Made by a program: the position numbers and the translations under genes. Under the pieces are notes generated by a model. It was not told where the DNA came from. It saw only the letters and a program-made list of their open reading frames with translations, and searched no databases. A stretch of DNA of 37,695 bases from an uncultured Bacteroidales bacterium. Its GTDB lineage: Bacteria > Bacteroidota > Bacteroidia > Bacteroidales > JAIOZK01. The stretch is taken from contig CAZTAW010000002.1 of assembly GCA_964611705.1 (NCBI GenBank), positions 1-37,695 of the forward strand. Reading direction: 5' to 3'. Shown piece after piece: positions 5,582 to 34,618 of the stretch (within the stretch, counting starts at the first letter, position 1; each line of letters starts with the position of its first letter).

Positions 5582-5597
5582 GTTTTAAAATATCGAA

Positions 5598-7894: not shown

Positions 7895-7905
7895 TAATAT
7901 ATACC

Positions 7906-9672: not shown

Positions 9673-9685
9673 CTTACTAACAACA

Positions 9686-10225: not shown

Positions 10226-10248
10226 TTAAAAATTAAATATTTTAAGCC

Positions 10249-17796: not shown

Positions 17797-17893
17797 CGTG
17801 ATTTTAATATTTGAATTAATCAACCAAATGTAGTAAAAAATGTTCTTTTTGTAAGGAGTTTTTGTACTTTTAATGAACAAATAAAATGATGAA

Positions 17894-18799
17894 ATGAAAA
17901 AGAATGTTGCATTGGTAATGTCGAGCGGAGGCGCAAGGGGAATGGCGCATATCGGTATAATTGAAGAACTGCTTAAATCGGGTTTTAATATCACTTCAAT
18001 TGCCGGCTCTTCAATAGGGGCTTTGATTGGGGGCGTGTATGCCAGTGGCAGGCTGAATGAATTTACAACCTGGATGCGCGACGTTTCAAGGATGGATGTT
18101 TTTAAAATGATGGATTTTGCCATTAGCAAAAGAGGATTTATCAAGGGTGAAAAAGTGTTCAGGGAAATTAAAAAATATATTGGCGATGTAAATATAGAAG
18201 ACCTGACAATACCTTATGTCTCCATCGCTACTGACATCATGAACCACAATGAAATAGTTTTTACCACCGGTAGCCTGATCAATGCGATCAGGGCATCGGT
18301 TTCCATACCTACCATTTTTTTACCTTTTGAAATTGACGGTATTGATCTGATTGACGGAGGAATGATCAATCCGTTGCCTTTAAATCGTGTTAAACGACAG
18401 GAAAACGATATTTTAATTGCCGTAAACCTGAACTCTCCGGTAAAATATATTAAACCTGAAAGCGAAACGAACCATCATAAAGAATCTGTTTTCAATAATA
18501 TGCGCAAAACCATCAATAAGAAATGGTCGAGATATTTCAATAACAATAAAAAACAGCGAAGTAAAAAGATGGGGTTTTTTGACCTGCTTACCGGTTCTTT
18601 TGCACTGATGCAGGATAAAATTTCGGAATACACCATACAGCAGTACGCACCGGATATTTTAATTGACATTTCCCGTCATTCCTGCGATACACTTGAATTT
18701 TATAAGGCAAATGAACTGATTGAAGTTGGCAGGGAAGCATGCCGGGAGGCTATTGGAAAATATTTGAAGGCGGGTGAGGACCAAACAGAAAAGCATTAA
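17894..18799 (+). CDS. patatin-like phospholipase (RssA/YlbK-like)
   Basis: 301 aa. It has the oxyanion motif SSGGARGMAHIG, the nucleophile elbow GSSIGA (GxSxG) and the catalytic Asp motif LIDGGMINPLP. Confidence 0.9.
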   Translation: MKKNVALVMSSGGARGMAHIGIIEELLKSGFNITSIAGSSIGALIGGVYASGRLNEFTTWMRDVSRMDVFKMMDFAISKRGFIKGEKVFREIKKYIGDVNIEDLTIPYVSIATDIMNHNEIVFTTGSLINAIRASVSIPTIFLPFEIDGIDLIDGGMINPLPLNRVKRQENDILIAVNLNSPVKYIKPESETNHHKESVFNNMRKTINKKWSRYFNNNKKQRSKKMGFFDLLTGSFALMQDKISEYTIQQYAPDILIDISRHSCDTLEFYKANELIEVGREACREAIGKYLKAGEDQTEKH

Positions 18800-19096: not shown

Positions 19097-19134
19097 AAAA
19101 AAAAACACACCCCGATAATCACAGGGTGTGTTTT
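19097..19134 (-). terminator. intrinsic terminator downstream of the second USP gene
   Basis: ACACACCC (19105..19112) pairs with GGGTGTGT (19124..19131). On the minus strand the hairpin is followed by a 9-nt T-run, which is the A-run 19097..19105 on plus. Confidence 0.65.
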
Positions 19135-19156: not shown

Positions 19157-19996
19157 TTATCTTGAAACAATCTTGCGCCAGTTGAAATCCCTGGGGTTGA
19201 TGCACATTACAGGTATTTGTGATGTGTTGAAAATGATCTCTTCGTCGTAGCTGCCAAGGATGAATTTGGTAAATCCTTTTTCAGGGTTGGTCATGATCAT
19301 GATCATACCGGCGTCAATAGATGTGGCATAATCAATTACTTTTTTGGTAAAACCCGAACCTTTTTCAAGTTTTTTTACCTCGAAGCCAATATCATTGGCT
19401 TTAAAATGATTGGTAATCAGCACCACGGCATCATCAATCGTATCGTCTTCAACCTGCAAAAGGTGTATTTTTGCATCGAACTGTTTTGCAATGGAAGCAG
19501 CCCATTTGGTTTTTTCCCAGGGGCCGGCATCGCTGGTAATAGGCAATACGATGTTTTTGTAAAGGTCTTTGAAATAGCGTTTTTGTGTAACAATAACCGG
19601 AACTTCGGAGCTGGTAATCACTTTAAGTGCATAGCTGCCTGTAAGCTTTTGCATTCCTACCTTGCCATGCGTGCCAAGATAAATGAGGTTTGCTTTGATG
19701 TCTTTGGCAACTTCGCCGATGGTGGTAAATATTTTACCTTCTTTGGCCATGGTTTCAACCTCCACACCATATTCTTTCTTTGTTTCCTCTGCAATTTCGT
19801 TAAGCTTATTGTCAATTGATTCAAGCCCTTTTTTTTCTTTTTTCAGCTCTGCTTTGGTGTTCTTGTCTATCACATGGAGAATACAGACCTTGAAATCTAA
19901 GAACTTTGCAGCATTAGCTGCCATTTTTATCGCGTTTGCGCATACTTCCGAAAAATCAGTTGGTACCAGAAGTACATTGTTCATTTTTGTTTCCAT
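19157..19996 (-). CDS. tandem-domain universal stress protein (UspA family)
   Basis: 279 aa, the same length and motifs as 16960..17796 (VPTDFSEVC, ILHV, GTHGKVGMQ, IPVMCINP). Confidence 0.85.
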   Translation of the reverse strand: METKMNNVLLVPTDFSEVCANAIKMAANAAKFLDFKVCILHVIDKNTKAELKKEKKGLESIDNKLNEIAEETKKEYGVEVETMAKEGKIFTTIGEVAKDIKANLIYLGTHGKVGMQKLTGSYALKVITSSEVPVIVTQKRYFKDLYKNIVLPITSDAGPWEKTKWAASIAKQFDAKIHLLQVEDDTIDDAVVLITNHFKANDIGFEVKKLEKGSGFTKKVIDYATSIDAGMIMIMTNPEKGFTKFILGSYDEEIIFNTSQIPVMCINPRDFNWRKIVSR

Positions 19997-20071: not shown

Positions 20072-20668
20072 TTATTTATGATTGAGCAATTCAAGGATTT
20101 GGCCTAAGTTGTCCTGTTTTCCTTCTGACCTTAGCTTTTCGGAGGTTTTTGTGAAATAAGTATGGCTTTGCAAAAATTCAACCTGCAATTGGTACCATTC
20201 AATAAGGGTAGTGGGCTTAAATCTTGATATAAGCCATTCCTGGCGCAACTGATGAGAGATCATAAAGAAATCGTTTCTTCCCAAATAATCAAGGTCGGCA
20301 TCACAAAGAATTTTTTCAAGCGGGTGAGAGGCATCCTGCGGAAGCTTTGTTGTTAGGATCATCTGATTGATTAGTTCAATTTCTCTTTTGGAGTAATTAA
20401 ATTCTGGCAGAATCTCGTTTGTAATTTCTGTTGAGGCTTCTTCATGTCCCTGGTATGTTGTAAGCATGCCTGAATCGTGAAAAAGACAGGCTGTTTTCAG
20501 TAGCAGTAAGTCGGTAGTGTTTATATTCTCATTGGCTGCAATGTTGACCGCTGCTTCCAGAACATCCAATGTGTGGTTCACATTGTGATAATACAACCAG
20601 GCAGGTAATTCTTTCTCCAGCTTGCTTAATATCAATGTCTTTACGCTTTCATATTCCATGTTTTGCAA
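20072..20668 (-). CDS. HD-domain metal-dependent phosphohydrolase (phosphodiesterase-like motifs)
   Basis: 198 aa. Motifs present are YYHNVNHTLDV, LFHDSG and LCDADLDYLG. It is the last gene of the cyclase operon, after a 14-nt gap. Confidence 0.75.
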   Translation of the reverse strand: MQNMEYESVKTLILSKLEKELPAWLYYHNVNHTLDVLEAAVNIAANENINTTDLLLLKTACLFHDSGMLTTYQGHEEASTEITNEILPEFNYSKREIELINQMILTTKLPQDASHPLEKILCDADLDYLGRNDFFMISHQLRQEWLISRFKPTTLIEWYQLQVEFLQSHTYFTKTSEKLRSEGKQDNLGQILELLNHK

Positions 20669-20682
20669 ATTTAAACATAATG

Positions 20683-21174
20683 TTAATGCTCAGGCTGATA
20701 ACCCAATAAATTTATTTCCGCTGTTTTGCCCCTGAGTGCAACCGGCCCTAAGTTGCTAAACCGCGGGTCGGGTTTTAGCAGTTTGAATGCCTGCCCGGAT
20801 ATGATCATATCGGTTTTATACTTTTTACAGGCTTCCATAATCCGGCTGAAGTTTTTGAATACAACATCAATATACCTGATGTTGGAGAGCATGGCATAGA
20901 ACAGACTAACGGTGTAAATCACAAAAGCATAAAACAAGGTAAGAAGCAATACCGAAACAATCAGGTTGAATCTTCTGGTAAGTCTTGCATAAAAATAATC
21001 GGTATAGCTGTACAATATAAAAAAAACCGTTCCTCCGATGGCGAAGCCGAAAACCATATTAAGCGGGTGCCAGTTGTTTTGCATTACGCATACAAATACT
21101 CCGGTAAGTAATCCTGCAAAAATAAAAGGGGCCAAAGCTGTTTTAATTTTATGTCTGATAATGGGGGCCATCAA
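20683..21174 (-). CDS. membrane protein carrying only the C-terminal remnant of a class III cyclase domain
   Basis: 163 aa with four hydrophobic helices. The tail RIMEACKKYKTDMIISGQAFKLLKPDPRFSNLGPVALRGKTAEINLLGY aligns by eye with SRLEGLTKLYGASIIMSEDTLIRLNDPSQYNYRFLDIVKVKGKKEAVYIFEI of the upstream cyclase. The metal-binding part of the domain is absent. An ATGA overlap joins it to the cyclase gene. Confidence 0.6.
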   Translation of the reverse strand: MMAPIIRHKIKTALAPFIFAGLLTGVFVCVMQNNWHPLNMVFGFAIGGTVFFILYSYTDYFYARLTRRFNLIVSVLLLTLFYAFVIYTVSLFYAMLSNIRYIDVVFKNFSRIMEACKKYKTDMIISGQAFKLLKPDPRFSNLGPVALRGKTAEINLLGYQPEH

Positions 21175-23273
21175 TCGTATTTGTTTTCAATTTTCTCAAT
21201 GCCGTCCCAGTTTTCCGAAACACCTTCGCGCAGTATTTTTTTGCATCTTTGAATGTAAATATTGGCAGCCAGGTCTTCGGGGTTTTCCGAGAACACGGTA
21301 ATAAACAATTCAAGTGCTTTTTCAAACTGCATGTTTTTATAAAGCTGAAGGGCTTTACTGAATTCACTTTTTGTTTTGATCTTTAGCAGTTTGCTTTCTT
21401 CTTTTTCACCGTCAAGGATTTCAAAAATATAAACCGCTTCTTTTTTCCCTTTTACTTTTACAATATCAAGAAATCTGTAATTATACTGCGATGGATCGTT
21501 CAATCTGATCAATGTATCTTCTGACATAATAATAGAGGCGCCATAGAGTTTCGTCAATCCCTCAAGACGGGAGGTGAGGTTAACGGCATCGGAGATTACA
21601 GTTCCGTCCATACGGCCTTCGCCTCCTACGATGCCAAGCATCAGGTTGCCGGTATGTATGCCAATTCCGATCTGTATAGGAGGCTTTCCAAATTGACTGA
21701 TCACATGGTTAAATTCAACCAGCTTGATCTGCATTTCTATGGCCGCATTGATGGCATCTTCGGCTTTATCGCTGAAGAGTGCCATGATGGAATCGCCGAT
21801 GTATTTGTCAACAAAACCCTGGTTATTCCTGATCACGGGTTCCATGTAACCCAGGTAATTATTCAGGAAATTGAAGTTTTCGCGGGGTGTCATCTCTTCC
21901 GATATTCCTGTAAAATTGCGAATGTCAGCAAAAAGGATGCTCATTTCTTTTTGCACCTGGTCGCCAAGATGGATATCGGCAATGTTTTCTTTCTGCAGGA
22001 ATTCGAGGAATTGTTTGGGAACAAAACGGGAATTCGCCTCATTGATCTTAGAAATACTTTCGATGTATTCGTTGATGCGGCGCGCCATGTCGTTGTATCC
22101 TTCGGTTAAAACACCCAGTTCGTCGTTGGTGCGTACAATGCTGTACTGGTTTATTTCACCGCGTCCTGTGGCCTGCATGTTGACCAGAAGCTCCCTGACG
22201 GGTTCAACAATGTCGCGGGTTGTCCAGGTAACAAAAAATAGCAGGTAAATAACGGCAATGATAATTCCTGTAAATATGCCGGAAAACATTAGCAGGCTGT
22301 CGAGGACATTTACATAGAAAAATTCTCCGTACAGGTTGATCTGTATGGATGAAAAATAGGCCAGGTAATTACCGAAAAGGATTTTCAGTTGCTCGGGTGT
22401 GGGGTTTTCAATCCCGGTTTCACGCAGTGTGGAGACGCTGAGCAATAAATAAAACATCACAATAAATAACGGAAGCAAGGTAGTCATTGCATTTGAAGTC
22501 CAGAGCCTGAATCTTACCTTACCGGCTTTTACTTTGAATATTCTTTTCCTGAGTTCATGGGTTGAATAAACATGATCGATGTAACGGAGATGAACGCGGT
22601 GTTTTTCCCAGAAATAAACAAACAGCAATGTAAGAATGGTTGAAACCAATGAGATGATAAAGAAACGCAGGAAAAAACGTTGTGTGATCTCATCGAAAGT
22701 GTTGGTGAAGATCAAAATAAAAAGCATGTATATCAATGTGATTCCGAATGAAATAAACAATATACCTACATTAATAACAGGAACTTTAAGCAGGAATTTT
22801 TTGCAAAACTTATGCAGCTTTTCCGGTATGGGTTTGTTTTTTCGTTTTTTTGAAAAATAGATTTTGAATGGAAGGTTGAACGCCAGCCCGAGTAAAAAGC
22901 TCACCATTAGCAGCTTGATCAGGGTAATAACAGTAGTATTAAATTTATTACTGCCAGATTGTGTGGAGGAATCGTTACCAACCTCTATATTAATATTTTC
23001 TTCCGGTCCGGTGGTATCAAAAACAATAACGCTGTCGGCCACCAGGCTAATGTCATCTTCGGGAATTATTTTTGTGAGGTTGCCGGCATCGAATTCCTGT
23101 TCTGTTTGTTCAGTATCATTTTGTGGGTGCCGGTTTTGTTGTGCCATCCAGTTAGGCCCGTATTTTGCAAGCAGAAAAAGGGCAATGGGCATAACCAGTA
23201 AAAAATAGATCAATACCGAAACCAGATAAATCCTTAAGCCATGAAACCTGGGTACCTTTCTTCTGTCAGACAT
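21171..23273 (-). CDS. membrane-bound class III adenylate/guanylate cyclase with HAMP domain and C-terminal TPR-like tail
   Basis: 700 aa with a multi-TM N-terminal half and a HAMP-like linker (VEPVRELLVNMQATGRGE...ELGVLTEGYNDMARRINE). The cyclase core has SILFADIRNFTG, KYIGDSIMALF, IGIHTG and DAVNLTSRLEG. Confidence 0.9.
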   Translation of the reverse strand: MSDRRKVPRFHGLRIYLVSVLIYFLLVMPIALFLLAKYGPNWMAQQNRHPQNDTEQTEQEFDAGNLTKIIPEDDISLVADSVIVFDTTGPEENINIEVGNDSSTQSGSNKFNTTVITLIKLLMVSFLLGLAFNLPFKIYFSKKRKNKPIPEKLHKFCKKFLLKVPVINVGILFISFGITLIYMLFILIFTNTFDEITQRFFLRFFIISLVSTILTLLFVYFWEKHRVHLRYIDHVYSTHELRKRIFKVKAGKVRFRLWTSNAMTTLLPLFIVMFYLLLSVSTLRETGIENPTPEQLKILFGNYLAYFSSIQINLYGEFFYVNVLDSLLMFSGIFTGIIIAVIYLLFFVTWTTRDIVEPVRELLVNMQATGRGEINQYSIVRTNDELGVLTEGYNDMARRINEYIESISKINEANSRFVPKQFLEFLQKENIADIHLGDQVQKEMSILFADIRNFTGISEEMTPRENFNFLNNYLGYMEPVIRNNQGFVDKYIGDSIMALFSDKAEDAINAAIEMQIKLVEFNHVISQFGKPPIQIGIGIHTGNLMLGIVGGEGRMDGTVISDAVNLTSRLEGLTKLYGASIIMSEDTLIRLNDPSQYNYRFLDIVKVKGKKEAVYIFEILDGEKEESKLLKIKTKSEFSKALQLYKNMQFEKALELFITVFSENPEDLAANIYIQRCKKILREGVSENWDGIEKIENKYD

Positions 23274-23357
23274 TACTCCATTTAAGTTTTTGTAAAATTA
23301 AATAAATTAGTTAATTATTACAAAGTGATGGCATAAAGAATAAGCTGAAATTTTTTA

Positions 23358-23365
23358 TATATTTG
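23358..23365 (+). promoter_or_regulatory. Bacteroidota-type -7 promoter box candidate (TAnnTTTG)
   Basis: TATATTTG lies 19 nt upstream of the ATG at 23384, inside the 110-bp divergent intergenic region. No clear -33 TTTG was seen. Confidence 0.3.
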
Positions 23366-23383
23366 GGTAATGTTTAGAATTTT

Positions 23384-24367
23384 ATGTTTATGACCGTATC
23401 AGCAATGCGTTTATTCTTATCATTTATATTTTTAGTTTTATTGTTTCCGCTTTCGGGTCAGGAATTAACAAAGCTCAGATTTACTCCACACTGGCTACCG
23501 CAAGCGCAGTTTGCAGGTTATTATGTTGCCAGGGAAAAAGGTATTTATGAAAAATACGGCCTGGATGTGGAGGTGTTGATGGGAGGGCATAATTTTCCTG
23601 CTATTCCTGTTCTTACGGAAGACAAGACCGATCTGGTAAGTATGTTTCTGTCAGGGGCTATAAAAGCGAAAGCAAGAGGCGTTGATATGGTTGATGTATG
23701 CCAGCTTTCGCAGCGTTCGGCCCTGATATTCGTGTCAAAAAAAGAAAGCGGTATTGATAAACCCGATGGCTTTAACGGAAAGAAAATCGGTGTCTGGCGA
23801 TCCGATTTCCAGGAATTACCCCGCGCTTTTTTAAACAAGTTTGATATTGATGCGGAAATCGTTCCCATTACCAGTACCGTTAATTTATTTCTGTGGGGCG
23901 GAATTGACATCATGTGCGTTATGTGGTACAATGAATATCATCAGATCCTGAATTTCGGAATCAACCCTGATGAATTGAATACCTTTCATTTTTATGATTA
24001 CGATTTAAACTATCCCGAAGACGGTATCTTTTGCATGGAATCATTTTACCATGAAAATAAGGAAGCGGTTGAAAAATTTGTCAAGGCAACAATTGAAGGC
24101 TGGAATTATGCTTTTGCCCATAAAGAAGAAGCGCTTGATATTGTTCTCGAAAGAATGGAAAAGGTAATGGTGCCTGCTAACAGGGCTCACCAGCAATGGA
24201 TGCTGAACCGTATGCAGGATGTTTTTATTTTACAGGAAGGGGATAAGATCACAGGATGTCTTAAGAAGGAGGATTATCTGAGTACTGCCCGTGTTTTGCT
24301 GAAATCCGGGGTTATTGATAATATTCCTGATTTTGAGGAATTTAACAAAACACCGGAGGGGAAATGA
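23384..24367 (+). CDS. periplasmic solute-binding protein, NMT1/THI5 (NitT/TauT-like) family
   Basis: 327 aa with a signal peptide. LRFTPHWLPQAQFAGYYVAREKGIYEKYGLDVEV is typical of NMT1-like SBPs. No permease or ATPase gene is nearby. Its stop overlaps the start of the sensor gene (ATGA). Confidence 0.7.
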   Translation: MFMTVSAMRLFLSFIFLVLLFPLSGQELTKLRFTPHWLPQAQFAGYYVAREKGIYEKYGLDVEVLMGGHNFPAIPVLTEDKTDLVSMFLSGAIKAKARGVDMVDVCQLSQRSALIFVSKKESGIDKPDGFNGKKIGVWRSDFQELPRAFLNKFDIDAEIVPITSTVNLFLWGGIDIMCVMWYNEYHQILNFGINPDELNTFHFYDYDLNYPEDGIFCMESFYHENKEAVEKFVKATIEGWNYAFAHKEEALDIVLERMEKVMVPANRAHQQWMLNRMQDVFILQEGDKITGCLKKEDYLSTARVLLKSGVIDNIPDFEEFNKTPEGK

Positions 24368-26733
24368 AAGCGAAAGGCCTGGGCGTTAAACTGGCATTTT
24401 ATATTATTACGGCTACTATTATCATCGTAGGTGCAATTCTCTGGATCAACCACTCCATTTCAAAAAAACTTTTGCTTAAAAATGTTGAGGAAAATGCCGC
24501 CAATCTCACCCAGTCAACTGTAAACAAAATAGAAGGTGTTTTGGGAACCGTTGCTAAAATACCTGAAAATGAGTCTTATGTATTCAAGGATTTTGATATT
24601 ACCACTGAACAATTGCATTCCTATATTAGAATGATCGTTAAGAACAATAAGGAAGTATTCGGGGGTTGTGTGGCATTTGAACCTTATTCTTATTATAAAG
24701 ATTCTCTTTATTTTGCTCCTTATTGCTATAAGAGCGAGGATTCAATTATCTGTGAGAATCTGGGTACTGAAACGTACCAGTATTTTTACTGGGACTGGTA
24801 CCAGATACCGTCCATTCTGCAAAAGCCTGTCTGGTCGGAGCCGTATTTTGATGAAGGCGGAGGGAATATTTTGATGTGTACCTATTCGGTTCCTTTTTAC
24901 AGGAAAAGTAATGGAGAAAAAAAATTCAGGGGAGTTGTAACGGTTGATATTTCACTGGAATGGCTGGATGAGCTGGTTTCTTGCATAAAAATATACGAGC
25001 ATGGCTACGCTTTTCTGCTTTCGCAAAATGGTACGGTTATTACCCATCCGAATGATAAATATGAAATGCATCAAACTGTTTTCAGCCTGGCAGAAGAATA
25101 TAATGTACCTGAGTTGCGGGAGGTAGGCCGGAAAATGATCAGTGGTAAAAGCGGATTTATTGAGTATACTTCCATTTATACGCATCAGGAGGGTTTTATG
25201 TATTACTATCCTCTTGAAACAACCGGTTGGTCGCTCGCTGTATTGATTCCAAGAGAAGAGTTATTTGCCGACCTTTATGCATTAAACAAACGTTTGCTGT
25301 TAATAGGTGTTATCGGAATTATTGTTTTGCTGGTATTGATAGTCGCTACTTCTCAGCGTATTACGGGTCCGCTGAGAAAACTTGTTAAGGTTACTGATAA
25401 TATAGGAAAAGGTAATTTTGATGTTGTTTTGCCACCAGTAAAGGGAAATGATGAGATCGCCAAGCTTAACAGCTCAATTTCGGCTATGCAGCGCGAATTA
25501 AAGACCTATATCAGGAATTTAAAAGATACCACAGCAGCCAAGGAAAAAATTGAAAGCGAGCTGAAAATTGCCCATGATATTCAACAGGGGATTATTCCGA
25601 AGATATTTCCTCCTTTTCCCGAAAGGGATGATGTTGATCTGTATGCAGTTTTGGATCCGGCACGCGATGTGGGCGGTGACCTATATGATTTTTTCTTCCT
25701 GGATGATTATAATCTCTGTTTTGCAGTGGGTGATGTTTCCGGAAAAGGAGTGCCTGCTTCATTGTTTATGGCGATTACACGTACGTTGTTGCGTGCCAAA
25801 GTTTCAATTGATCTTCCTGTAAATGAAATTGTGAAAAGCATAAATCTGGAATTATGCCAGGGAAACGAAAACAGCATGTTCGTTACTTTCTTCCTTGGTA
25901 TAATTGACCTGAAAAACGGATTAGTGAATTACTGCAATGCGGGGCATAACCTTCCTTATATTCTCAGGAGCGATTGTAAAATTGAAACTCTTACCGGTAC
26001 ACATGGTACGCCAATGGGGATTTTTGAGGATATGGAATATAAAACCGAAACACTACAGCTCAATAATACGGATACACTGGTAATTTATACCGACGGTGTT
26101 CCTGAAGCAATGAATTTCAATAATGAACTGTTTGGAGATGACCGGTTAAAAAAACTTCTTCTGCAATTTTGCAGAACAAACCCAATTGATGTTACAACCG
26201 CAATGGTAAATGAAGTGAAAAAGTATACAGGTGAAGCCGAACAGTCGGATGATATAACGATTTTATCTTTAACCTTCTTTTCTGATAAAAAAGTGAAAAA
26301 ACATATTGACGATACCAGGGAATTGATCCTCAGAAATGATATTGCTGAACTGTATAATCTTAAAAAATATATAGACAGCCTGGCGCTTGAATGGAAGATG
26401 GATCAGAAACTTGTTATTAACATCAACCTCGTTCTTGAAGAAGTGCTGACGAATATTATTTTTTACGGATACGCTGATAAGCAGCAGCATCAGATATTGT
26501 TGTTTTTCAGTAAACAGGATGGCCGACTTGAGATACGCGTTGAAGATGATGCCAGGCCCTTTAATCCCCTTGAAACGGATATACCGGAAGATTTTGACAA
26601 GCCATTGGAGAAACGCAAAATTGGCGGCCTTGGCATACACCTGATGAAAAACTTAATGGATAACTTTAGCTATAAACGCGAAAACAATAAGAATATACTC
26701 ATTCTAATTAAAAATTGTAGTATAAATGCATAA
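24364..26733 (+). CDS. membrane sensor: Cache-like periplasmic domain - HAMP - PP2C/SpoIIE phosphatase - RsbW-type HATPase domain
   Basis: 789 aa. TM1 spans aa 10-30, followed by an extracytoplasmic region of about 280 aa, TM2 (LLLIGVIGIIVLLVLIVATS) and a HAMP linker. PP2C motifs are DVGGDLYDFF, GDVSGKGVPASLFMA, YTDGVPEA and SDDITILSL. The C-terminal HATPase_c_2-like domain has EEVLTNIIFYGY, VEDDARPFNP and GGLGIHLMKNLMD. Confidence 0.85.
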   Translation: MKAKGLGVKLAFYIITATIIIVGAILWINHSISKKLLLKNVEENAANLTQSTVNKIEGVLGTVAKIPENESYVFKDFDITTEQLHSYIRMIVKNNKEVFGGCVAFEPYSYYKDSLYFAPYCYKSEDSIICENLGTETYQYFYWDWYQIPSILQKPVWSEPYFDEGGGNILMCTYSVPFYRKSNGEKKFRGVVTVDISLEWLDELVSCIKIYEHGYAFLLSQNGTVITHPNDKYEMHQTVFSLAEEYNVPELREVGRKMISGKSGFIEYTSIYTHQEGFMYYYPLETTGWSLAVLIPREELFADLYALNKRLLLIGVIGIIVLLVLIVATSQRITGPLRKLVKVTDNIGKGNFDVVLPPVKGNDEIAKLNSSISAMQRELKTYIRNLKDTTAAKEKIESELKIAHDIQQGIIPKIFPPFPERDDVDLYAVLDPARDVGGDLYDFFFLDDYNLCFAVGDVSGKGVPASLFMAITRTLLRAKVSIDLPVNEIVKSINLELCQGNENSMFVTFFLGIIDLKNGLVNYCNAGHNLPYILRSDCKIETLTGTHGTPMGIFEDMEYKTETLQLNNTDTLVIYTDGVPEAMNFNNELFGDDRLKKLLLQFCRTNPIDVTTAMVNEVKKYTGEAEQSDDITILSLTFFSDKKVKKHIDDTRELILRNDIAELYNLKKYIDSLALEWKMDQKLVININLVLEEVLTNIIFYGYADKQQHQILLFFSKQDGRLEIRVEDDARPFNPLETDIPEDFDKPLEKRKIGGLGIHLMKNLMDNFSYKRENNKNILILIKNCSINA

Positions 26734-28234
26734 AGAAAAACAGGTAATTATTACCATTCCCAACGATTTGATGTTTGCAGAACTGGTCATTGAAAATGCA
26801 AGGCAATCAGCCAGGCTGATGGAGTTTGCTGATAAGTCAATTCGTGAAATAGAGCTTGGAACCGAAGAAGCCATTAGTAATATTATAAAGAATGCTTTTG
26901 AAGAAGAACAGGAAGAAACAATTGATGTGATTTTTAATTTGAAACAAACCGGGCTGGAAATTATTATGAAGGAGAAAGGAATTCCATGGGATCCGGAAGT
27001 GGTTTCGGAATTCACACCGGAAAAGTTTAAAGAAAGCGGTTCCGAAGAAGGTTTGGGCATGTATCTGATGAAGCGTTTTATGGATTCATTTTCATTTGAA
27101 AATCTTGGTAAGCAAGGCAAGGAAACACGTTTGTTTAAATATCTTGATCAGAGCAAAATTGAAAATATTCTTTCCAATGAAGAACTCCAAAAAGCAGAAG
27201 AAGAACGCAAAGCTGAAAAGCTTCCCAAAGGCAGTGTAAAGTATACTGTCAGGATGCTGAAGCCGGAAGAAGCTGTTGGGGTTTCTGTTTGTGCCTATGC
27301 TTCGTATGGATATACATATGTTCATGAAGATATTTATTATCCTGACCGTGTTCGTGCTTTGAATAAAAGTGGTGACTTGTTGTCATTTGTAGCCATAAAA
27401 GATAATGGTGAAGTTATTGCCCATGCTGCCCTTGAAAGAGAAGACGATCCGCTTGTACCGGAATTTGGTGTTGCAGCTACAAAACCCAGGTATCGCGGAC
27501 AGGGTTGTTTGAATGCGATCAGTATTTACAGGAAGAAAAAAGCCAAAGAGTTCAATTTCCTGGGTATATACGGAAAAGGCATAACAACCCATTTCTTTTC
27601 GCAAAAATCAATGCTTAAACATGGAATGAATCCTTGTGCATTGTTTTTGTCGAGCGGAATGGAACGAAAGTATAAAGATATAGAACAGAAAAAAATACAG
27701 CGCGAAAGCGTTTTTATTCATTTTCAATATATGAATCCGCCTGAAAAGATTTCAATTTTCCCCCCTGAAAAACATGCCGGTTTTATTGAAGAATTGTTCG
27801 GAAAAATTGGTGTTAAACCTGAAGTTGCAAAAGTTGAAACAGACATCAAGCCCTTAGCAGATGAAGCGAAGTTAAGTGTTAAAACTTACCTGAGTAGCAT
27901 GACTTCCAATATCAAGATCATTGAATACGGGAAAAATGTTGTTAGAGAGGTTAATGCCCAACTCAAAAAGCTATGCCTTGAAAGGGTGGAATCAATTTAT
28001 TTGTTTTTACCCCTATGTGATAAAAATACAGCAGTATATTGCGAAGCATTTGAAAAAATTGGATTTTTCTTTGCCGGAATCAAACCTGCCTCCGGTTTCC
28101 GGGATGCATTGGTTTTGCAGTATCTGAATAATTATGAGATAGATTATGATTTGATCGCAGTAGGTTGCGAATTTTCAGAACGCATAAAAAAATACGTCAG
28201 AAAAAGTCAGCAGGAAGTAAAACAGAATCAATAA
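26726..28234 (+). CDS. RsbW-type anti-sigma-kinase-like domain fused to a GNAT acetyltransferase-like domain
   Basis: 502 aa. The N-terminal domain has GTEEAISNIIKNAFEE, KEKGIPWDP and EGLGMYLMKRFMDSF. The central GNAT has VAIKDNGEVIAHAALE and FGVAATKPRYRGQGCLNAI (motif A). The C-terminal ~180 aa are unassigned. It overlaps the upstream gene by 8 nt. Confidence 0.7.
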   Translation: MHKEKQVIITIPNDLMFAELVIENARQSARLMEFADKSIREIELGTEEAISNIIKNAFEEEQEETIDVIFNLKQTGLEIIMKEKGIPWDPEVVSEFTPEKFKESGSEEGLGMYLMKRFMDSFSFENLGKQGKETRLFKYLDQSKIENILSNEELQKAEEERKAEKLPKGSVKYTVRMLKPEEAVGVSVCAYASYGYTYVHEDIYYPDRVRALNKSGDLLSFVAIKDNGEVIAHAALEREDDPLVPEFGVAATKPRYRGQGCLNAISIYRKKKAKEFNFLGIYGKGITTHFFSQKSMLKHGMNPCALFLSSGMERKYKDIEQKKIQRESVFIHFQYMNPPEKISIFPPEKHAGFIEELFGKIGVKPEVAKVETDIKPLADEAKLSVKTYLSSMTSNIKIIEYGKNVVREVNAQLKKLCLERVESIYLFLPLCDKNTAVYCEAFEKIGFFFAGIKPASGFRDALVLQYLNNYEIDYDLIAVGCEFSERIKKYVRKSQQEVKQNQ

Positions 28235-28272
28235 AAATTAATATCATTGTAACAGAATAAAGTTCTAAAGAC

Positions 28273-28605
28273 ATGGAAATTACTACCCGGAAAAAACAAA
28301 ATTATACCATCGTAGTCATTGATGGAAGACTTGATACAACCAATTATCAGGAACTGGAAAAAGAATTGCAAAAGTTGCTGGAATCAAATGTTAGTAATTT
28401 GATCATTAATTGTGAGAATCTTGAATATATAAGTAGTAGCGGTTTACGTGTGTTTTTAATGTTCCTGAAAAAGATCAGGGCTTTGGATGGAAAGTTTTTG
28501 ATTTGCAATATGCAGGAGAGTATCAGGGAAATATTCCAGATTTCAGGGTTTACAAGTATATTTGATATTTACGAAAATCAGGACAGGGCAGAGGCTGTCA
28601 TGTAA
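28273..28605 (+). CDS. STAS-domain anti-sigma factor antagonist (SpoIIAA/RsbV-like)
   Basis: 110 aa. VIDGRLDTTNYQELEKEL...LIINCENLEYISSSGLRVFL carries the conserved phosphorylatable serine context, with SSSGL corresponding to DSSGL. Confidence 0.9.
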   Translation: MEITTRKKQNYTIVVIDGRLDTTNYQELEKELQKLLESNVSNLIINCENLEYISSSGLRVFLMFLKKIRALDGKFLICNMQESIREIFQISGFTSIFDIYENQDRAEAVM

Positions 28606-28752: not shown

Positions 28753-29130
28753 ATGAAATCAATTAAGGGTAAAAATGTGAAATTGTTTTTTGCGGGTTTG
28801 TTTCTGGCAGTGACAATGGCCCTTGTATATAATAATGCATTTTTTACCCATACTCACAAGCTTCCCGACGGAACGATTATACAACATGCCCACCCCTATA
28901 AAAGTGATGCGGATTCTTCTTCACCCTTCAAAAACCACCATCATACCTCATTTGAATTTCTTGTACTCAATAACCTGGGCGTTTTTATTCTTCTTACCTG
29001 CCTGGCATTTTTCTTTTTCGATAAAGGGATACCATCTTTAATAACTGATCATTACTTTTTTGTAGAATACTCATCTTATCATTTATATCATTTCTATCGG
29101 GGGCCGCCACTTAAAATGATCTCTTTTTAA
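28753..29130 (+). CDS. small His-rich membrane protein (two TM helices), unknown family
   Basis: 125 aa. An N-terminal TM helix is followed by the His cluster HTHKLPDGTIIQHAHPY...KNHHHTSFEF, a second TM (LGVFILLTCLAFFFF) and a C-terminal FYRGPP. It ends 57 nt upstream of the TonB-dependent receptor. Confidence 0.55.
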   Translation: MKSIKGKNVKLFFAGLFLAVTMALVYNNAFFTHTHKLPDGTIIQHAHPYKSDADSSSPFKNHHHTSFEFLVLNNLGVFILLTCLAFFFFDKGIPSLITDHYFFVEYSSYHLYHFYRGPPLKMISF

Positions 29131-29187: not shown

Positions 29188-31569
29188 ATGAAAAAATATT
29201 TATTGGTATTTATATGTATTTATATATCATTTGCATCTTTTAAAATCAATGCACAAAACAAAACAGATGCAAATTTAGTTGGGCACGTAGTTTGCTGCGG
29301 GGAACATATCCCCTTTGCCAGCGTTTATATTAAAGGAACAACCATCGGAACAACAACAGATGAAACAGGGCATTTTCAACTGATCAACCTTCCACCCGGT
29401 GAAGTTGTTGTGAGGGCGCAAGCATTGGGATATAAACCTGCTGAGCAAACAGTGACAGCAGAAACCGGTACAACAAAGGAAATTAAGTTTGAACTGGAAC
29501 GCGATATGTTGGGCCTTGAGGAGGTTGTTGTAACCGGCGACCGGAAAACAAAAGGAAGGCATAATTCTTCTGTTGTTGTTAACTCAATTACACCGGTGCA
29601 TTTCAGGGCAACACAATCAGTAACACTGGGTGAGGGCCTGAATTTTTGTCCTGGCCTGCGGATGGAAAACAATTGCCAGAATTGTGGTTTTAGCCAGATA
29701 AGAATGAACGGAATGGAAGGGCCGTATTCCCAGATTCTTATTAACAATCGTCCCATCTTTAGCGGCCTGGCGGGTGTATATGGTCTTGAGTTGATCCCGG
29801 CCAATATGATAGAACGTGTGGAAGTAGTTAGGGGTGGAGGTTCTGCTTTGTACGGAAGTAATGCAATTGCAGGAACCATTAACCTTATTTTAAAAGACCC
29901 CGGCAAAAGCTCTTATGAATTTGGAACTGACATGGGAGTAATTGGTGTTGGTATGGATGGCGCAGGCGATCCCGCTACGGATTACAATATGAAATTAAAT
30001 ACCTCACTTGTTTCGGGTGATAGCAAAACAGGAATGTCCGTATATGGTTTTCACAGGAACAGGCAGCATTTTGATGCCAACGGAGATGAGTTTTCAGAAC
30101 TGGCTTCAATTGAAAATACAACAATTGGCTCACGCTTGTTTCATCGTTTTGGATATCGTAGTAAACTTACTTTTGATTTTTTCAACATCAACGAAAACAG
30201 AAGGGGTGGAAATAAATTTGAGTATCCCAAACATGAGGCGGATATTGCAGAGGCTTTGGAGCATAATCTTTTCACAGGTGCGCTTTCATTTGATCAGTAT
30301 TTCAGGGATACGGACCTTTTATCGGTATACATCTCAGGACAGAATGTTGACAGAGACTCATATTATGGTGCCAATCAATCTTTGAAAGACTATGGAAAGA
30401 CAAGCGATTTTACTTATAATATCGGAGCACAGTATTTTGCTGACTTCAAATCTTCTGATCTGATCATTGGTATTGAAAATACAGGTGGAAAGCTGAAAGA
30501 CAAAAAGCTTGGCTATCCTGATTATGAAAATGCCGTTATTATTGATGATTCAATTGTTAGCGTTCCGCATGTGCCGAATACGGTAATTGCGGATCAAACT
30601 ACAAATACATTTGGTGCTTTTACACAATATGAAATCAACATCAGTAATCTGAAAGCTTCACTTGGTTTACGATACGATCATTATAACGTAAAGGACAATC
30701 AGCGTGAAGGGGAAACCAAAACCGGTGATGTATTCAGCCCGCGTGTTAACCTGATGTATGATATAACCGAATTTCTGCAGGCACGCCTGAGTTATTCGCA
30801 AGGATACAGGGCGCCTCAGATTTTTGATGAAGACCTGCATATAGAAACTTCGGGCTCCCGACAGGTAATACATCGAAATGCGCCTGACCTGAAGCAGGAA
30901 ACAAGTCATAGTATTACTACATCTTTAACCTTAAATAAAAGGTTTGGTAAAACGAATGTTGAATTTGTTGCAGAGGGTTTTTACATTCAGCTTGTTGATC
31001 CTTTTGCCAATGAATTCAGTGAACCTGATTCAAGTGGTGTTGTGGTTTATACGCGCGTGAATGCTGAGGATGGCGCCAAAGTAATGGGGGTAAATCTGGA
31101 GTTGAATATTGTACCAAAAGGAAATGTTTTATTCAAATCGGGTCTTACAATACAAAAAAGCGAATATGATAAAGCGCAGGAATTTAACGAAAAACGTTTT
31201 TTCAGAACACCTGATTCCTATGGCTATACAATGATGGACTGGAAGGTTAATAATTCCTTTGGTTTTTCGGCTTCCCTTGATTATACGGGTAAAATGCTAG
31301 TGCCTTATTTTGGGGTGGGGCTGCCGGATGCTGATGAGGGAGAATTGCGTGAATCGGATGCTTTCTTTGATTTGGGAGTGAAGCTCAGATATAATGTGAA
31401 AATCAACGGAGCTACATTGCAGATTTTTGGCGGAGTGAAAAACATTTTCAATTCTTATCAGGATGATTTTGATTACGGAGTTGACCGTGACCCGGGCTAT
31501 ATCTATGGCCCGCTGAATCCAAGAACGATTTATTTTGGTATCAATATCGGAAATAAAATCAAGTCCTGA
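29188..31569 (+). CDS. TonB-dependent receptor with N-terminal CarboxypepD_reg-like domain
   Basis: 793 aa with a signal peptide. It has a CarboxypepD_reg-like domain (VYIKGTTIGTTTDETGHFQLINLPPGEVVV), a TonB-box/plug region (LEEVVVTGDR...ERVEVVRGGGSALYGSNAIAGTINL) and a long beta-barrel. The plug contains an unusual NNCQNCG. Confidence 0.9.
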   Translation: MKKYLLVFICIYISFASFKINAQNKTDANLVGHVVCCGEHIPFASVYIKGTTIGTTTDETGHFQLINLPPGEVVVRAQALGYKPAEQTVTAETGTTKEIKFELERDMLGLEEVVVTGDRKTKGRHNSSVVVNSITPVHFRATQSVTLGEGLNFCPGLRMENNCQNCGFSQIRMNGMEGPYSQILINNRPIFSGLAGVYGLELIPANMIERVEVVRGGGSALYGSNAIAGTINLILKDPGKSSYEFGTDMGVIGVGMDGAGDPATDYNMKLNTSLVSGDSKTGMSVYGFHRNRQHFDANGDEFSELASIENTTIGSRLFHRFGYRSKLTFDFFNINENRRGGNKFEYPKHEADIAEALEHNLFTGALSFDQYFRDTDLLSVYISGQNVDRDSYYGANQSLKDYGKTSDFTYNIGAQYFADFKSSDLIIGIENTGGKLKDKKLGYPDYENAVIIDDSIVSVPHVPNTVIADQTTNTFGAFTQYEINISNLKASLGLRYDHYNVKDNQREGETKTGDVFSPRVNLMYDITEFLQARLSYSQGYRAPQIFDEDLHIETSGSRQVIHRNAPDLKQETSHSITTSLTLNKRFGKTNVEFVAEGFYIQLVDPFANEFSEPDSSGVVVYTRVNAEDGAKVMGVNLELNIVPKGNVLFKSGLTIQKSEYDKAQEFNEKRFFRTPDSYGYTMMDWKVNNSFGFSASLDYTGKMLVPYFGVGLPDADEGELRESDAFFDLGVKLRYNVKINGATLQIFGGVKNIFNSYQDDFDYGVDRDPGYIYGPLNPRTIYFGINIGNKIKS

Positions 31570-31741: not shown

Positions 31742-32389
31742 ATGGTAAAGTGCATTCAATACAAAGATCCCAATTCTCAGGAATTGATTCGCGAGCTGGA
31801 AGGATTAAACCAATGCCCGGGTACATGTTTTTTTATTGACATTGTGGGTTCAACCATTATTAAATACAGGTCAGGTTTGAAAGAATGGGGACGTAAGCTG
31901 AACAATACCTTTAATTTTATTTCTTTCCTGAATGACTTCCCTGATAATATCGTTAAAGGCATTGGTGATGAAATTATGCTATACATACCTGATGAAGAGC
32001 TTTTTAAAAAGAAATCCCACAAGGATTATTTTTCGCTTTTACAGGAAATCTACGCCACGCTTGATAATATTAAAAACTTCCCCCTTGAGGACACTTTTTT
32101 ACACTGCAAGGTAGCCATTCATTACTGCAGTGATGTGTACAATATTTCTTTCCTGAAAGGCGCGAATGATTACTATGGCAAAGATATTGACCTTACGGCA
32201 AGGCTTACCTCCAAAGCAAAAACCAACAGAATTGTCTTGAGTGAAGTCTTTTACCAAAAAGTAAAGATTGATTACGATAAAAAATACAAAGGTTTCCAGG
32301 CAACAGCTTTCAATAGAATATCAGAAAAATATATAGAAGATTTTAAAGGTGTACCATTTCCAACTGAGTTTCGCATTATAGAAGTTTAG
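31742..32389 (+). CDS. minimal stand-alone class III nucleotidyl cyclase-like protein
   Basis: 215 aa with no sensor, TM or regulatory domain. CFFIDIVGST, KGIGDEIMLYI, KVAIHYC and GKDIDLTARLTS align by eye with ILFADIRNFT, KYIGDSIMALF, IGIHTG and DAVNLTSRLE of the 700-aa cyclase in this window. Confidence 0.7.
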   Translation: MVKCIQYKDPNSQELIRELEGLNQCPGTCFFIDIVGSTIIKYRSGLKEWGRKLNNTFNFISFLNDFPDNIVKGIGDEIMLYIPDEELFKKKSHKDYFSLLQEIYATLDNIKNFPLEDTFLHCKVAIHYCSDVYNISFLKGANDYYGKDIDLTARLTSKAKTNRIVLSEVFYQKVKIDYDKKYKGFQATAFNRISEKYIEDFKGVPFPTEFRIIEV

Positions 32390-32407
32390 TTGTATTTTTG
32401 TAAAGCA

Positions 32408-32695
32408 ATGCTGAAATTTCAGAAAATAGCAGCCGGTTTGTTTCTTTTGCTGTTCCTGTTCAGGTCTGTGCCTGAACAATATTGGATATTTCTACATCCT
32501 CATGAGCATGACAAATATCATAAAATCTCTCAACATTCTGTATTAAGCAAAGCTTATCATAACTGCAAAGATCATCTTACCTATGTGAATGTAAAGTTGA
32601 TTCAGGATGATGAATCCTTTTCTGTGGTTTTACCTTTTGATCAACCTGTTTATTTTATTAATATTTCAGAACACGACTACAAAACTTATTTTTAA
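32408..32695 (+). CDS. His-rich small membrane protein, probable frameshifted paralog of 28753..29130
   Basis: An N-terminal TM (IAAGLFLLLFLF) is followed by His clusters (HPHEHDKYHK, HNCKDH). The second TM and an NRAPP end (compare YRGPP) appear only in the +1 frame, 32601..32735 (MMNPFLWFYLLINLFILLIFQNTTTKLIFNFQNRAPPTRLIA). The ATG at 32408 is preferred over the TTG at 32390. Confidence 0.4.
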   Translation: MLKFQKIAAGLFLLLFLFRSVPEQYWIFLHPHEHDKYHKISQHSVLSKAYHNCKDHLTYVNVKLIQDDESFSVVLPFDQPVYFINISEHDYKTYF

Positions 32696-34253: not shown

Positions 34254-34516
34254 CCCGCAGCTTTAGCTGTGGGTTAAAAAGAAGGAAATATAATGAGCCG
34301 GGAGATTCCTCAACCTCTCGCTGCTGACTTTTGCAGTATTTCGCAATCGGCTAAACGGCGAGAGGTTTACGGAATGACAGGCGCTTTTTTTGAAAGTGGG
34401 CGGGGGCTGGATGGCGCTCTGCGCCATCCAGCCCCATCTCTTTCCTATAAAAGCCAATGTCATTCCTCATAAGAGCAGTCGAGCGCAGCGAGACCGCGAA
34501 AGGAGGAATCTGTGGG
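34254..34516. repeat. GC-rich island of nested perfect inverted repeats (candidate structured RNA or REP/MITE-like DNA element)
   Basis: Perfect arms are 34303..34311 with 34503..34511 (9 bp), 34312..34321 with 34358..34367 (10 bp), 34371..34379 with 34458..34466 (9 bp), and 34403..34417 with 34421..34435 (15 bp, 3-nt loop). A further hairpin pairs 34254..34261 with 34266..34273. Bases 34381..34440 are 37/60 G+C, whereas the flanks are strongly AT-rich. Confidence 0.6.
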
Positions 34517-34618
34517 CATATTGTTTTTAAATTAAAGAATAAAAAATTAATATTCATTTATACAATTTTTCCAATTGTTTTTATACATTTACATTCCAAA
34601 ATCAATACTTGTTTAACC

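Follow-up and report, generated by a model that had tools for sequence, protein, structure and literature searches.

A partner-switching cassette without a sigma factor in an uncultured Bacteroidales bacterium and its candidate enzyme outputs, a small class III cyclase and an RsbW-acetyltransferase fusion

We analyzed a stretch of 37,695 nucleotides (nt) of DNA from an uncultured Bacteroidales bacterium (GenBank assembly GCA_964611705.1, contig CAZTAW010000002.1, positions 1–37,695; hereafter, the window), which carries a four-gene partner-switching cassette at positions 23384–28605. The locus is probably a sigma-factor-independent partner-switching system with enzyme outputs, namely the synthesis of cyclic AMP (cAMP) and acetylation. 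An earlier note on this DNA had proposed as outputs the acetyltransferase (GNAT) domain fused to one of the kinase-type domains of the cassette and the membrane cyclase encoded divergently from it, here designated cyc700. A nucleotide cyclase and the fused GNAT are both credible outputs; however, the wrong cyclase had probably been chosen. The evolutionarily conserved partner of the switch is not cyc700 but a small cyclase gene downstream of the cassette, designated cyc215 and not listed in that note, as seen from a very strong gene linkage. The conclusions presented here rest on homology, predicted structures, and gene order, which establish the parts of the system and their motifs, its predicted membrane topology, and the linkage of its genes. 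The genes of the cassette and the small cyclase are as follows:

23384–24367, plus strand: NMT1/THI5-type periplasmic solute-binding protein, 327 amino acids (aa) (Pfam NMT1, E 1.4e-34)
24364–26733, plus strand: Cache-HAMP-PP2C-RsbW_A membrane sensor phosphatase/kinase fusion, 789 aa (Pfam, transmembrane (TM) prediction)
26726–28234, plus strand: RsbW-GNAT fusion, 502 aa (Pfam, AlphaFold2 (AF2), Foldseek, homologues)
28273–28605, plus strand: single-domain STAS protein, 110 aa, predicted phospho-switch (Pfam STAS, PF01740, E 2.8e-22)
31742–32389, plus strand: cyc215, class III nucleotide cyclase, catalytic domain only, 215 aa (Pfam Guanylate_cyc, AF2, Foldseek)

The coordinates of the four packed cassette genes given in the earlier note were exact, and the six-frame list of open reading frames (ORFs) placed all of them on the plus strand. 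The junctions, read from the sequence, were also as claimed: the NMT1 gene and the 789-aa gene share an ATGA overlap at 24364–24367, the 789-aa and 502-aa genes overlap by 8 nt from the ATG at 26726 to the TAA at 26733, and a 38-nt gap separates the 502-aa gene from the ATG of the STAS gene at 28273. Searches with Pfam hidden Markov models (HMMs) matched every domain that had been named apart from the GNAT (NMT1, dCache, HAMP, PP2C, two RsbW-type domains, and STAS) and confirmed the PP2C, HATPase_c_2, and STAS assignments. No sigma factor is encoded in the cassette. The observation of the ORFs, their junctions and domains, and the lack of a sigma factor was thereby confirmed. The 789-aa protein is composed of the following parts:

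24391–24447, plus strand: first TM segment (TM prediction)
24514–25242, plus strand: periplasmic dCache domain (Pfam dCache_1 / MCP-like_PDC_1)
25294–25350, plus strand: second TM segment (TM prediction)
25351–25503, plus strand: HAMP domain (Pfam)
25705–26277, plus strand: PP2C/SpoIIE domain (Pfam SpoIIE, PF07228, E 6.7e-49)
26335–26712, plus strand: RsbW_A domain (HATPase_c_2; Pfam, E 9e-24)

Since the dCache domain lies between the two TM segments of the hydropathy profile, it is predicted to be periplasmic. The PF07228 match spans positions 2–191 of the 192 in the profile, and the PP2C motifs GDVSGKG, TDGVPEA, and SDDIT are present. RsbW_A, which in relatives is either fused to the phosphatase as in the window or encoded by a separate gene of ~142 aa, keeps the N-box Glu/Asn, the G1 Asp, and the G2 Gly-x-Gly, with Ala at the first Gly of G1. 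The second RsbW-type domain, RsbW_B of the 502-aa protein, has Glu in place of the G1 Asp, as do 65 of the 95 RsbW_B sequences compared. The ATP-binding motifs (N-box Glu/Asn, G1 Asp-or-Glu-x-Gly, and G2 Gly-x-Gly) are conserved across both sets, RsbW_A (n = 81) and RsbW_B (n = 95). The STAS protein also matched the NCBIfam model of anti-sigma factor antagonists, TIGR00377, at 86 bits (cut-off 53). Its predicted phospho-acceptor, Ser55 (codon 28435–28437), stands within YISSSGLR, and the phospho-serine context SSSGL pointed out in the earlier note was upheld: Ser55 aligns with Ser58 of SpoIIAA, and the position is Ser in 95/95 STAS proteins of related operons. Hence, all parts of an RsbU/V/W-type switch are present, as had been claimed, and their motifs look catalytically intact. 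Among the four features of RsbUVW/SpoIIA systems that can be checked in a sequence, the PP2C phosphatase, the RsbW kinase, and the STAS serine were found and a cognate sigma factor was not.

The ORFs of 80 genome loci were all scanned with HMMs built from the window proteins. The full cassette (NMT1, Cache-HAMP-PP2C with RsbW_A, RsbW_B-GNAT, and STAS) recurred in about 15 loci belonging to Bacteroidota, Cloacimonadota, and Thermodesulfobacteriota. Its retention as a unit in more than 14 independent loci indicates that the genes are not juxtaposed by chance.

A metagenome scan queried with cyc215 returned 80 loci, which are referred to below by L numbers together with those of the other scans. 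A STAS gene was located directly upstream of cyc215 on the same strand in 65 of the 80 loci, and in 60 of the 68 that had at least 500 nt of upstream sequence, with a 1-nt overlap as the commonest spacing. After clustering of the cyclases at 95, 85, and 75% identity, the STAS gene was upstream in 46/51, 22/27, and 11/14 clusters, respectively. The gene before STAS usually encoded a Cache-HAMP-PP2C-RsbW fusion, or else a PP2C protein with a separate RsbW, and only 4 of the 80 loci contained an RsbW-GNAT gene and only 2 an NMT1 gene. The gene order of these loci thus defines a conserved core, in which Cache-HAMP-PP2C plus RsbW is followed by STAS and then by the minimal cyclase. Chance synteny of the cassette and cyc215 was ruled out by the de-duplicated counts and the overlapping stop and start codons.

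The position of cyc215 relative to the cassette varies among relatives. In GNAT-containing cassettes, cyc215 comes straight after STAS in L013, L018, L038, and L104–L106. It lies a few kb from STAS in the window, L003/L014, and L113, beside a TonB receptor and small His-rich proteins. In L010/L170 and L015/L173, cyc215 is unlinked yet present in the same genome, where it adjoins a Peptidase_M19 gene, as it does in the window. A co-directional cluster on contigs of more than 1 Mb (L171, 5643–10648; L172, 5763–10648) consists of genes for a class II cyclic nucleoside monophosphate (cNMP) phosphodiesterase, Cache-PP2C, RsbW, STAS, STAS, and the cyclase. The phosphodiesterase (PF02112), encoded immediately upstream of Cache-PP2C in this one lineage, supports a cyclic-nucleotide function.

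A different arrangement was observed in L001 (14027–17082), as well as in L002 and L010, where the cassette is followed by genes for a beta-lactamase-fold protein, a group II intron reverse transcriptase, and a Fic protein. The metagenome-assembled genome concerned has the cassette on one contig and the small cyclase on another, and the genes that follow the cassette point to a rearrangement at the place where the cyclase sits in other genomes.

As judged from its sequence and structure model, cyc215 is a genuine class III cyclase with an adenylate-cyclase-type residue pair and no regulatory domain. It scored 28.3 bits against Pfam Guanylate_cyc (PF00211; cut-off 21.9), and its AF2 model (pLDDT 89.5, pTM 0.87) had the bacterial adenylate cyclases CyaC, Rv1900c, CyaB, and Ma1120 as top Foldseek matches (E ~1e-11, TMt up to 0.81). 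No cyclase was found in a single-sequence search of the PDB, but a five-sequence profile did find one. The catalytic residues were located in an alignment to CyaB, with spacing rules used as well for the first four: the metal-binding Asp33 and Asp76, the adenine pair Lys72 and Asp143, Arg154, and Lys202 are invariant in 32 homologues. The family comprises 572 protein clusters, all of ~215 aa and nearly all, where a source is named, from Bacteroidota; the 120 best homologues listed are 58–86% identical. A reading of cyc215 as PycC of the Pycsar anti-phage system was rejected, given a match of only 34 residues (E 8e-4), the absence of an effector-type gene, and the STAS and PP2C neighbours.

Three genes surround cyc215 in the window:

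28753–29130, plus strand: His-rich small membrane protein, 125 aa, with two hydrophobic segments (no Pfam match)
29188–31569, plus strand: TonB-dependent outer-membrane receptor, 793 aa (Pfam CarbopepD_reg_2, Plug, TonB_dep_Rec_b-barrel)
32390–32695, plus strand: small His-rich exported/membrane protein, 101 aa, directly after cyc215 (no Pfam match)

The first two are inserted between STAS and cyc215. The 125-aa protein carries the His-rich stretch HTHKLPDGTIIQHAHPYKSDADSSSPFKNHHH, with a weak match to the His-rich prefix of HypB, and the 101-aa protein the motif HPHEHDKYH. The same TonB receptor family adjoins cyc215 in L003, L014, and L113, and homologues of the 101-aa protein follow cyc215 in these three loci and in L004. 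Such surroundings invite a reading in which the cyc215 module belongs to a circuit for the acquisition of transition metals (zinc), with the TonB receptor, the His-rich proteins, and a ZIP transporter under its regulation. In agreement with it, 47/80 loci have a co-directional ZIP transporter gene after cyc215 (for example, L126, 10771–11499, PF02535, E 1.5e-23, plus 46 others), and other neighbours of cyc215 encode PTPS/QueD-family (PF01242) and FKBP-domain (PF00254) proteins and M20/M28 metallopeptidases. The cyc215 family, moreover, has invariant Cys29, Cys122, His127, and Cys129 and a near-invariant Cys25 in a CPGTC motif, residues that could form a metal or redox site. However, the ZIP linkage, which holds in 31 of 46 clusters at 95% identity, drops to 5 of 13 at 75%, so that much of it may be synteny within one clade, and the metal-binding site in cyc215 is putative only. 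We regard the metal circuit as rather unlikely; it concerns the physiological role and would complement the switch mechanism, not replace it.

The acetylation branch of the proposed system depends on the 502-aa protein, which is divided into three domains:

26774–27136, plus strand: RsbW_B domain (HATPase_c_2; Pfam, E 5e-17)
about 27233–27745, plus strand: GNAT fold (AF2/Foldseek; Acetyltransf_1 sub-threshold)
about 27758–28231, plus strand: conserved C-terminal alpha/beta domain, residues ~340/345–502 (AF2)

The best PDB sequence match of this protein was RsbW of Bacillus subtilis (6m36), on which the N-terminal domain of the AF2 model (pLDDT 87, built on 32 homologues) superposed in Foldseek with a TMt of 0.93. 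The middle domain (residues ~170–340) matched YhbS, RimJ-like (S5-alanine), RimI, phosphinothricin acetyltransferase, and ArsN with E-values from 1e-7 to 1e-6 and TMt from 0.6 to 0.78, and many full-length homologues match PF00583. The GNAT domain named in the earlier note was thus borne out through the homologues and the structure model. Motif A for acetyl-CoA binding, canonically R/Q-x-x-G-x-G/A, reads R257-G-Q-G260-C-L in the window protein; among homologues, Arg257, Gly258, and Gly260 are invariant and Gln259 is conserved in at least 90%. The invariant residues of the family include the RGQG and H..SQK motifs. For the C-terminal domain, a profile of residues 340–502 found no credible relative among PDB sequences (the best match was eIF2-alpha, E 0.04), and neither Pfam nor NCBIfam has a model that covers the full-length RsbW-GNAT architecture or this domain.

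RsbW-GNAT proteins form a large cross-phylum family that is not peculiar to the cassette. A word-indexed search gave 200 matches with E ≤ 1e-3 among the candidates scored, and the 120 matches listed share 34–79% identity. In a GTDB-based scan, the fusion was present in at least 543 species genomes from Bacteroidota, Desulfobacterota, Syntrophomonas, Nitrospirota, Cloacimonadota, Verrucomicrobiota, Acidobacteriota, Armatimonadota, and others. Nearly all of the 426 clusters at 50% identity (E ≤ 1e-30) have a length of ~500 aa; therefore, an RsbW domain stands in front of the GNAT and C-terminal module in essentially every case. Of the 63 loci whose flanks were long enough, 18 had a STAS gene within 500 nt of the RsbW-GNAT gene, and these 18 represent at least six phyla.

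The RsbW-GNAT genes without STAS have neighbours of their own: a divergent Amidohydro_3 gene in 10 loci, a gene for a large HEAT-repeat protein in 7 loci, and genes for the ATPase, permease, and binding protein of ABC transporters. Examples are L061 (8181–9872), L072 (11721–12569), L035 (12922–14337), L066 (8950–9879), and L047 (4053–6821). Such neighbours hint at a metabolite-linked role.

Presence of the NMT1 gene follows that of RsbW-GNAT. Counting only loci with enough sequence upstream of the Cache-PP2C gene to judge, NMT1 was directly upstream of it in 12/13 loci with RsbW-GNAT and in 2/34 loci without (Fisher p 2e-8, phylogeny ignored), and in one of the two exceptions an RsbW-GNAT gene sits 8.5 kb away. 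This co-occurrence points to an accessory pair added to the core switch, of which the window represents the extended flavour. The NMT1 protein has a single hydrophobic, signal-like N-terminal segment (aa 5–23 in the hydropathy profile), and it is likely to be a co-sensor for the Cache phosphatase. The earlier note had called it an orphan; this stands insofar as no ABC permease or ATPase is encoded in the window, but not in view of its association with RsbW-GNAT.

The same family data bear on a reading in which the acetyltransferase part of the 502-aa protein serves as an input. Acetyl-CoA or some other metabolite would be sensed by the GNAT and C-terminal domains, which would adjust RsbW_B as a second STAS kinase; the switch would combine metabolic state with the periplasmic signal, and the cyclase would be the sole output. 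RsbW_B keeps the N-box, G1, and G2 in nearly all members, which leaves room for true kinase activity; it makes sense for one STAS protein to have two kinases if their inputs differ, and the amidohydrolase, ABC transporter, and binding-protein genes next to lone RsbW-GNAT genes fit a metabolite link. On the other hand, the invariance of motif A and motif B residues across phyla argues for retained catalysis over ligand sensing alone, most members of the family lack a nearby STAS protein to phosphorylate, and the G1 Asp is replaced by Glu in 65 of the 95 RsbW_B sequences. We therefore hold a GNAT input to be unlikely.

The switch with two enzyme outputs, cAMP synthesis and acetylation, would operate as follows. 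The NMT1 protein and the dCache domain would sense an extracytoplasmic solute, and HAMP would pass the signal to PP2C. PP2C would dephosphorylate Ser55 of the STAS protein, and the phosphatase-fused RsbW_A would re-phosphorylate it. As the first output, the phosphorylation state of STAS would gate cyc215, a step suggested by the very strong gene linkage; in the conserved core, cyc215 holds the operon position that sigB or sigF has in the classical operons. As the second output, the same STAS protein would dock on RsbW_B and switch acetylation by the fused GNAT on or off, this branch being an accessory module that travels with the NMT1 gene. Regarding the contact with the cyclase, dephosphorylated STAS may bind cyc215 directly and favour the active dimer, by analogy with SiaC-SiaD and HsbA-HsbD, which we give somewhat less than an even chance. 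A less probable mode, modelled on the RsbV/SigB system, is that RsbW_A sequesters cyc215 and STAS releases it.

Several observations weigh against this mechanism. Eight of the 68 informative cyc215 loci have no STAS gene directly upstream, and the metagenome loci behind the counts given above are not phylogenetically independent. Within the window, the genes of the His-rich protein and the TonB receptor part cyc215 from STAS by ~3.1 kb, and cyc215 may be transcribed separately. The position of the transition-state Asn in cyc215 is an invariant Asp150 in the 32 homologues; thus, its activity and product are predicted only. The GNAT of the window protein taken alone stays below the Pfam threshold (16.9 bits, cut-off 20.7), and the final G/A of its motif A is missing. 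In addition, ~70% of RsbW-GNAT genes are encoded alone with no STAS gene nearby, so the protein may work without a dedicated STAS partner. Finally, the functional links themselves are drawn from gene order and homology.

On the other side of the cassette, the window contains the divergent operon of cyc700:

23274–23383, no strand: divergent intergenic region, 110 nt, AT-rich (sequence)
21171–23273, minus strand: cyc700, membrane adenylate cyclase, 700 aa (Pfam Guanylate_cyc, E 2.7e-23, and HAMP)
21426–21953, minus strand: class III catalytic domain of cyc700 (Pfam)
20683–21174, minus strand: p163, 163 aa (ORF; no Pfam match)
20072–20668, minus strand: HD-domain protein (Pfam HD)
19157–19996, minus strand: tandem-type Usp protein (Pfam Usp)
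19102–19134, minus strand: terminator-like hairpin at the end of the divergent operon, after the Usp gene, with a 13-bp stem and then a T-run (scan)

The earlier note had put forward this cyclase as a candidate output of the switch; its control could run through the shared 110-bp region or through protein-protein contact. The cyc700 protein is a bona fide class III cyclase with adenylate-cyclase-type Lys/Thr residues and with Cya2 and CyaB as PDB relatives, and the cassette is faced by the cyc700-HD-Usp genes in three loci (the window, L013, and L020) and has a similar cyclase gene close by in a fourth, L019. However, the neighbourhood comparison did not bear out a conserved output: cyc700 was found neither in the other ~20 cassette loci nor in any of the 80 loci centred on cyc215, and for the three or four loci that have it, which are close relatives, shared ancestry is a sufficient explanation. 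With its own 6–7 TM segments and HAMP domain, cyc700 has its own input module, and nothing in the intergenic region points to shared regulation. Control of cyc700 by the switch is accordingly improbable. Most likely, the cyc700/HD/Usp operon is a separate cAMP unit with its own sensor that is co-located with the cassette in a small clade. Matches of cyc700 to Pycsar cyclases were dismissed, as they reflect generic class III homology.

Within the intergenic region, a Bacteroidota-type −7 element, TATATTTG, occurs at 23358–23365, 19 nt before the NMT1 start codon. The −7 motif TANNTTTG is not enriched in the window (44 matches vs. 48.7 expected); thus, this match is consistent with a promoter and does not constitute evidence for one, and both this match and the one ahead of the 125-aa gene are no more than suggestive. 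Between 19 and 33 kb, a sigma-70 promoter scan stayed at chance level (53 vs. 43.5 ± 6.5), and a terminator scan gave 11 hits against 11.3 expected, of which only the hairpin after the Usp gene looks real.

The small protein p163, whose gene overlaps the stop of cyc700 by 4 nt, has three TM segments followed by ~45 residues resembling the C-terminus of class III cyclases (1.4e-14 against a cyclase HMM made here). It has no counterpart in L013 or L020 and may be the remnant of a second membrane cyclase. Further downstream, a 394-aa ORF at 16960–18144 (minus strand) has a Usp domain at residues 124–253 only and shares ~250 nt with the beginning of an oppositely oriented gene for a patatin-like phospholipase (17894–18799, plus strand); the TTG start of the Usp ORF is probably placed too far upstream. 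In mycobacteria, cAMP, Usp proteins, and GNAT enzymes are functionally connected: cAMP is bound by the Usp proteins, which a cAMP-dependent GNAT uses as substrates. By this analogy, the clustering of cyclase, Usp, and GNAT genes in the window may be taken as a lead, not as a result.

The only sigma factor of the window is of the extracytoplasmic function (ECF) type (9100–9672) and lies 13.7 kb from the cassette, in line with the earlier note. It is followed, within 9100–11289, by a 179-aa ORF (no Pfam match, presumed anti-sigma factor) and a gene for a DUF4097 "toastrack" protein. No sigma factor was found within 6.9 kb of STAS in about 170 related loci, which rules out one hidden nearby in relatives. 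The targets of RsbW-type anti-sigma factors are generally sigma factors of group 3, a group not known to be typical of Bacteroidota. A classical arrangement, in which RsbW_A, RsbW_B, or both serve as anti-sigma factors whose target has its gene elsewhere in the genome and the cyclase and GNAT are mere neighbours, would fit the likeness of both domains to RsbW and SpoIIAB in sequence and fold, as well as the existence of unlinked targets in some partner switches (HsbA reportedly acts, as its second partner, on the anti-sigma factor FlgM, so that a sigma factor is still involved there), but it has little probability in view of the ~170-locus result, the distance and company of the lone ECF factor, the atypical sigma group, and the 1-nt STAS/cyc215 overlaps, which across a diverse family argue for a functional unit.

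Some genes elsewhere in the window were also noted. Five co-directional genes at 3706–8976 encode a sodium:solute symporter, a small canonical GNAT (5144–5581), an M20 peptidase, an alanine racemase, and an alanine-racemase-N-domain protein; preceded by a MarR regulator, they look like an operon for D-amino-acid or peptide utilisation. Positions 34457–36376 encode a 639-aa protein that combines CARDB and caspase-like Peptidase_C14 domains. The Por_Secre_tail signals of the type IX secretion system (T9SS) at 11359–13257 fit the Bacteroidota origin of the DNA.

Partner switching is usually taught as a means of sigma factor control, and the known exceptions are few and mostly proteobacterial, and any cyclase among their outputs makes cyclic di-GMP (c-di-GMP). 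The present analysis adds two widespread and apparently undescribed architectures, namely an operon that ends in a regulator-less class III cyclase and the RsbW-acetyltransferase fusions. Full-text searches of a literature library found no link of STAS or partner switching to a class III cyclase or cAMP, the matches to "adenylate cyclase" being two-hybrid methods sections, and no description of an RsbW/HATPase_c_2-acetyltransferase fusion. Neither cyclases nor acetylation come up in a review of STAS-only proteins from 2021. As a wider and more tentative proposal, which we consider possible though on balance doubtful, many Bacteroidota may have an undescribed cAMP module in which phospho-STAS or the RsbW kinase directly gates a minimal adenylate cyclase that replaced the sigma factor of the ancestral operon. 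In one lineage, the same STAS protein would also drive the RsbW-acetyltransferase; the fusion would define cross-phylum acetyltransferases with an "anti-sigma-like" regulation, and a link may run through this circuit from periplasmic solute or metal status to cAMP and acetylation. If confirmed, the two architectures would provide a mechanism for regulating cAMP synthesis in a phylum with little-understood cAMP signalling, add enzyme regulation to the anti-sigma and kinase roles of the RsbW fold, and offer a compact three-protein phospho-switch for cAMP control in synthetic circuits.

Among characterized acetyltransferases, the mycobacterial KATmt/Rv0998 is a cAMP-dependent GNAT with a fused N-terminal regulatory domain. 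That domain binds cNMP, whereas in the window protein the regulatory domain is an RsbW-type GHKL domain, and an extra conserved C-terminal domain is present. The switch itself shares its three protein families, together with the phospho-serine and kinase motifs, with RsbU-RsbV-RsbW-SigB and SpoIIE-SpoIIAA-SpoIIAB-SigF of Bacillus (6m36, 1th8, 1l0o), in which the output gene likewise stands at the end of the kinase/antagonist operon. However, the Bacillus operons have sigB or sigF where the relatives of the window have the cyclase, and in the window the RsbW domains are fused to the phosphatase and to the GNAT.

Sigma-independent STAS switches acting on an enzyme or process have been described in several lineages. 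The HenR/STAS system of Anabaena acts on a glycosyltransferase (PMC13555669), SypE/SypA of Vibrio is a sigma-independent STAS partner switch (PMC10120452), and in Campylobacterota a PP2C, a STAS kinase, and a STAS protein are predicted to act on a c-di-GMP enzyme (PMC9239204). One of these includes a PP2C protein with a periplasmic sensor, as in the window; unlike the window, none has a class III cyclase or an RsbW-acetyltransferase fusion.

The two Pseudomonas systems that the earlier note had named as analogies, SiaABCD and HsbR/HsbA, were apt choices. In HsbR/HsbA/HsbD of P. aeruginosa (PMC5085249, PMC6482189), the PP2C phosphatase and an RsbW-type kinase are also fused in one protein, and the STAS antagonist HsbA works with a nucleotide cyclase and a second partner, so that one switch has two outputs. 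However, HsbR receives its signal through a receiver domain and the HptB phosphorelay, while the input of the window phosphatase is dCache plus HAMP and Pfam detected no Response_reg domain in it; moreover, HsbD is a diguanylate cyclase and the system has no acetyltransferase. In SiaABCD of P. aeruginosa (PMC8457831, PMC7647112), a membrane HAMP-PP2C phosphatase, a partner kinase, a small phospho-switch, and a sensor-less cyclase are encoded together, and the switch protein SiaC activates the cyclase SiaD by direct binding (PMC8457831). The differences are that SiaC is phosphorylated on Thr (PMC7647112), whereas the switch protein of the window is a STAS protein with a predicted Ser, and that SiaD is a GGDEF diguanylate cyclase, whereas both cyclases of the window are of class III (PF00211) and no GGDEF domain was found in the window. 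In addition, the window phosphatase has a periplasmic dCache domain and is fused to its kinase, matches the SiaA equivalog model NF038263 only in part (76 bits, cut-off 700), and is accompanied by the RsbW-GNAT branch and the NMT1 binding protein. Sigma-independent partner switching is thus already known, and SiaABCD and HsbR/A/D are its closest known forms to the system of the window, which is a member of neither.

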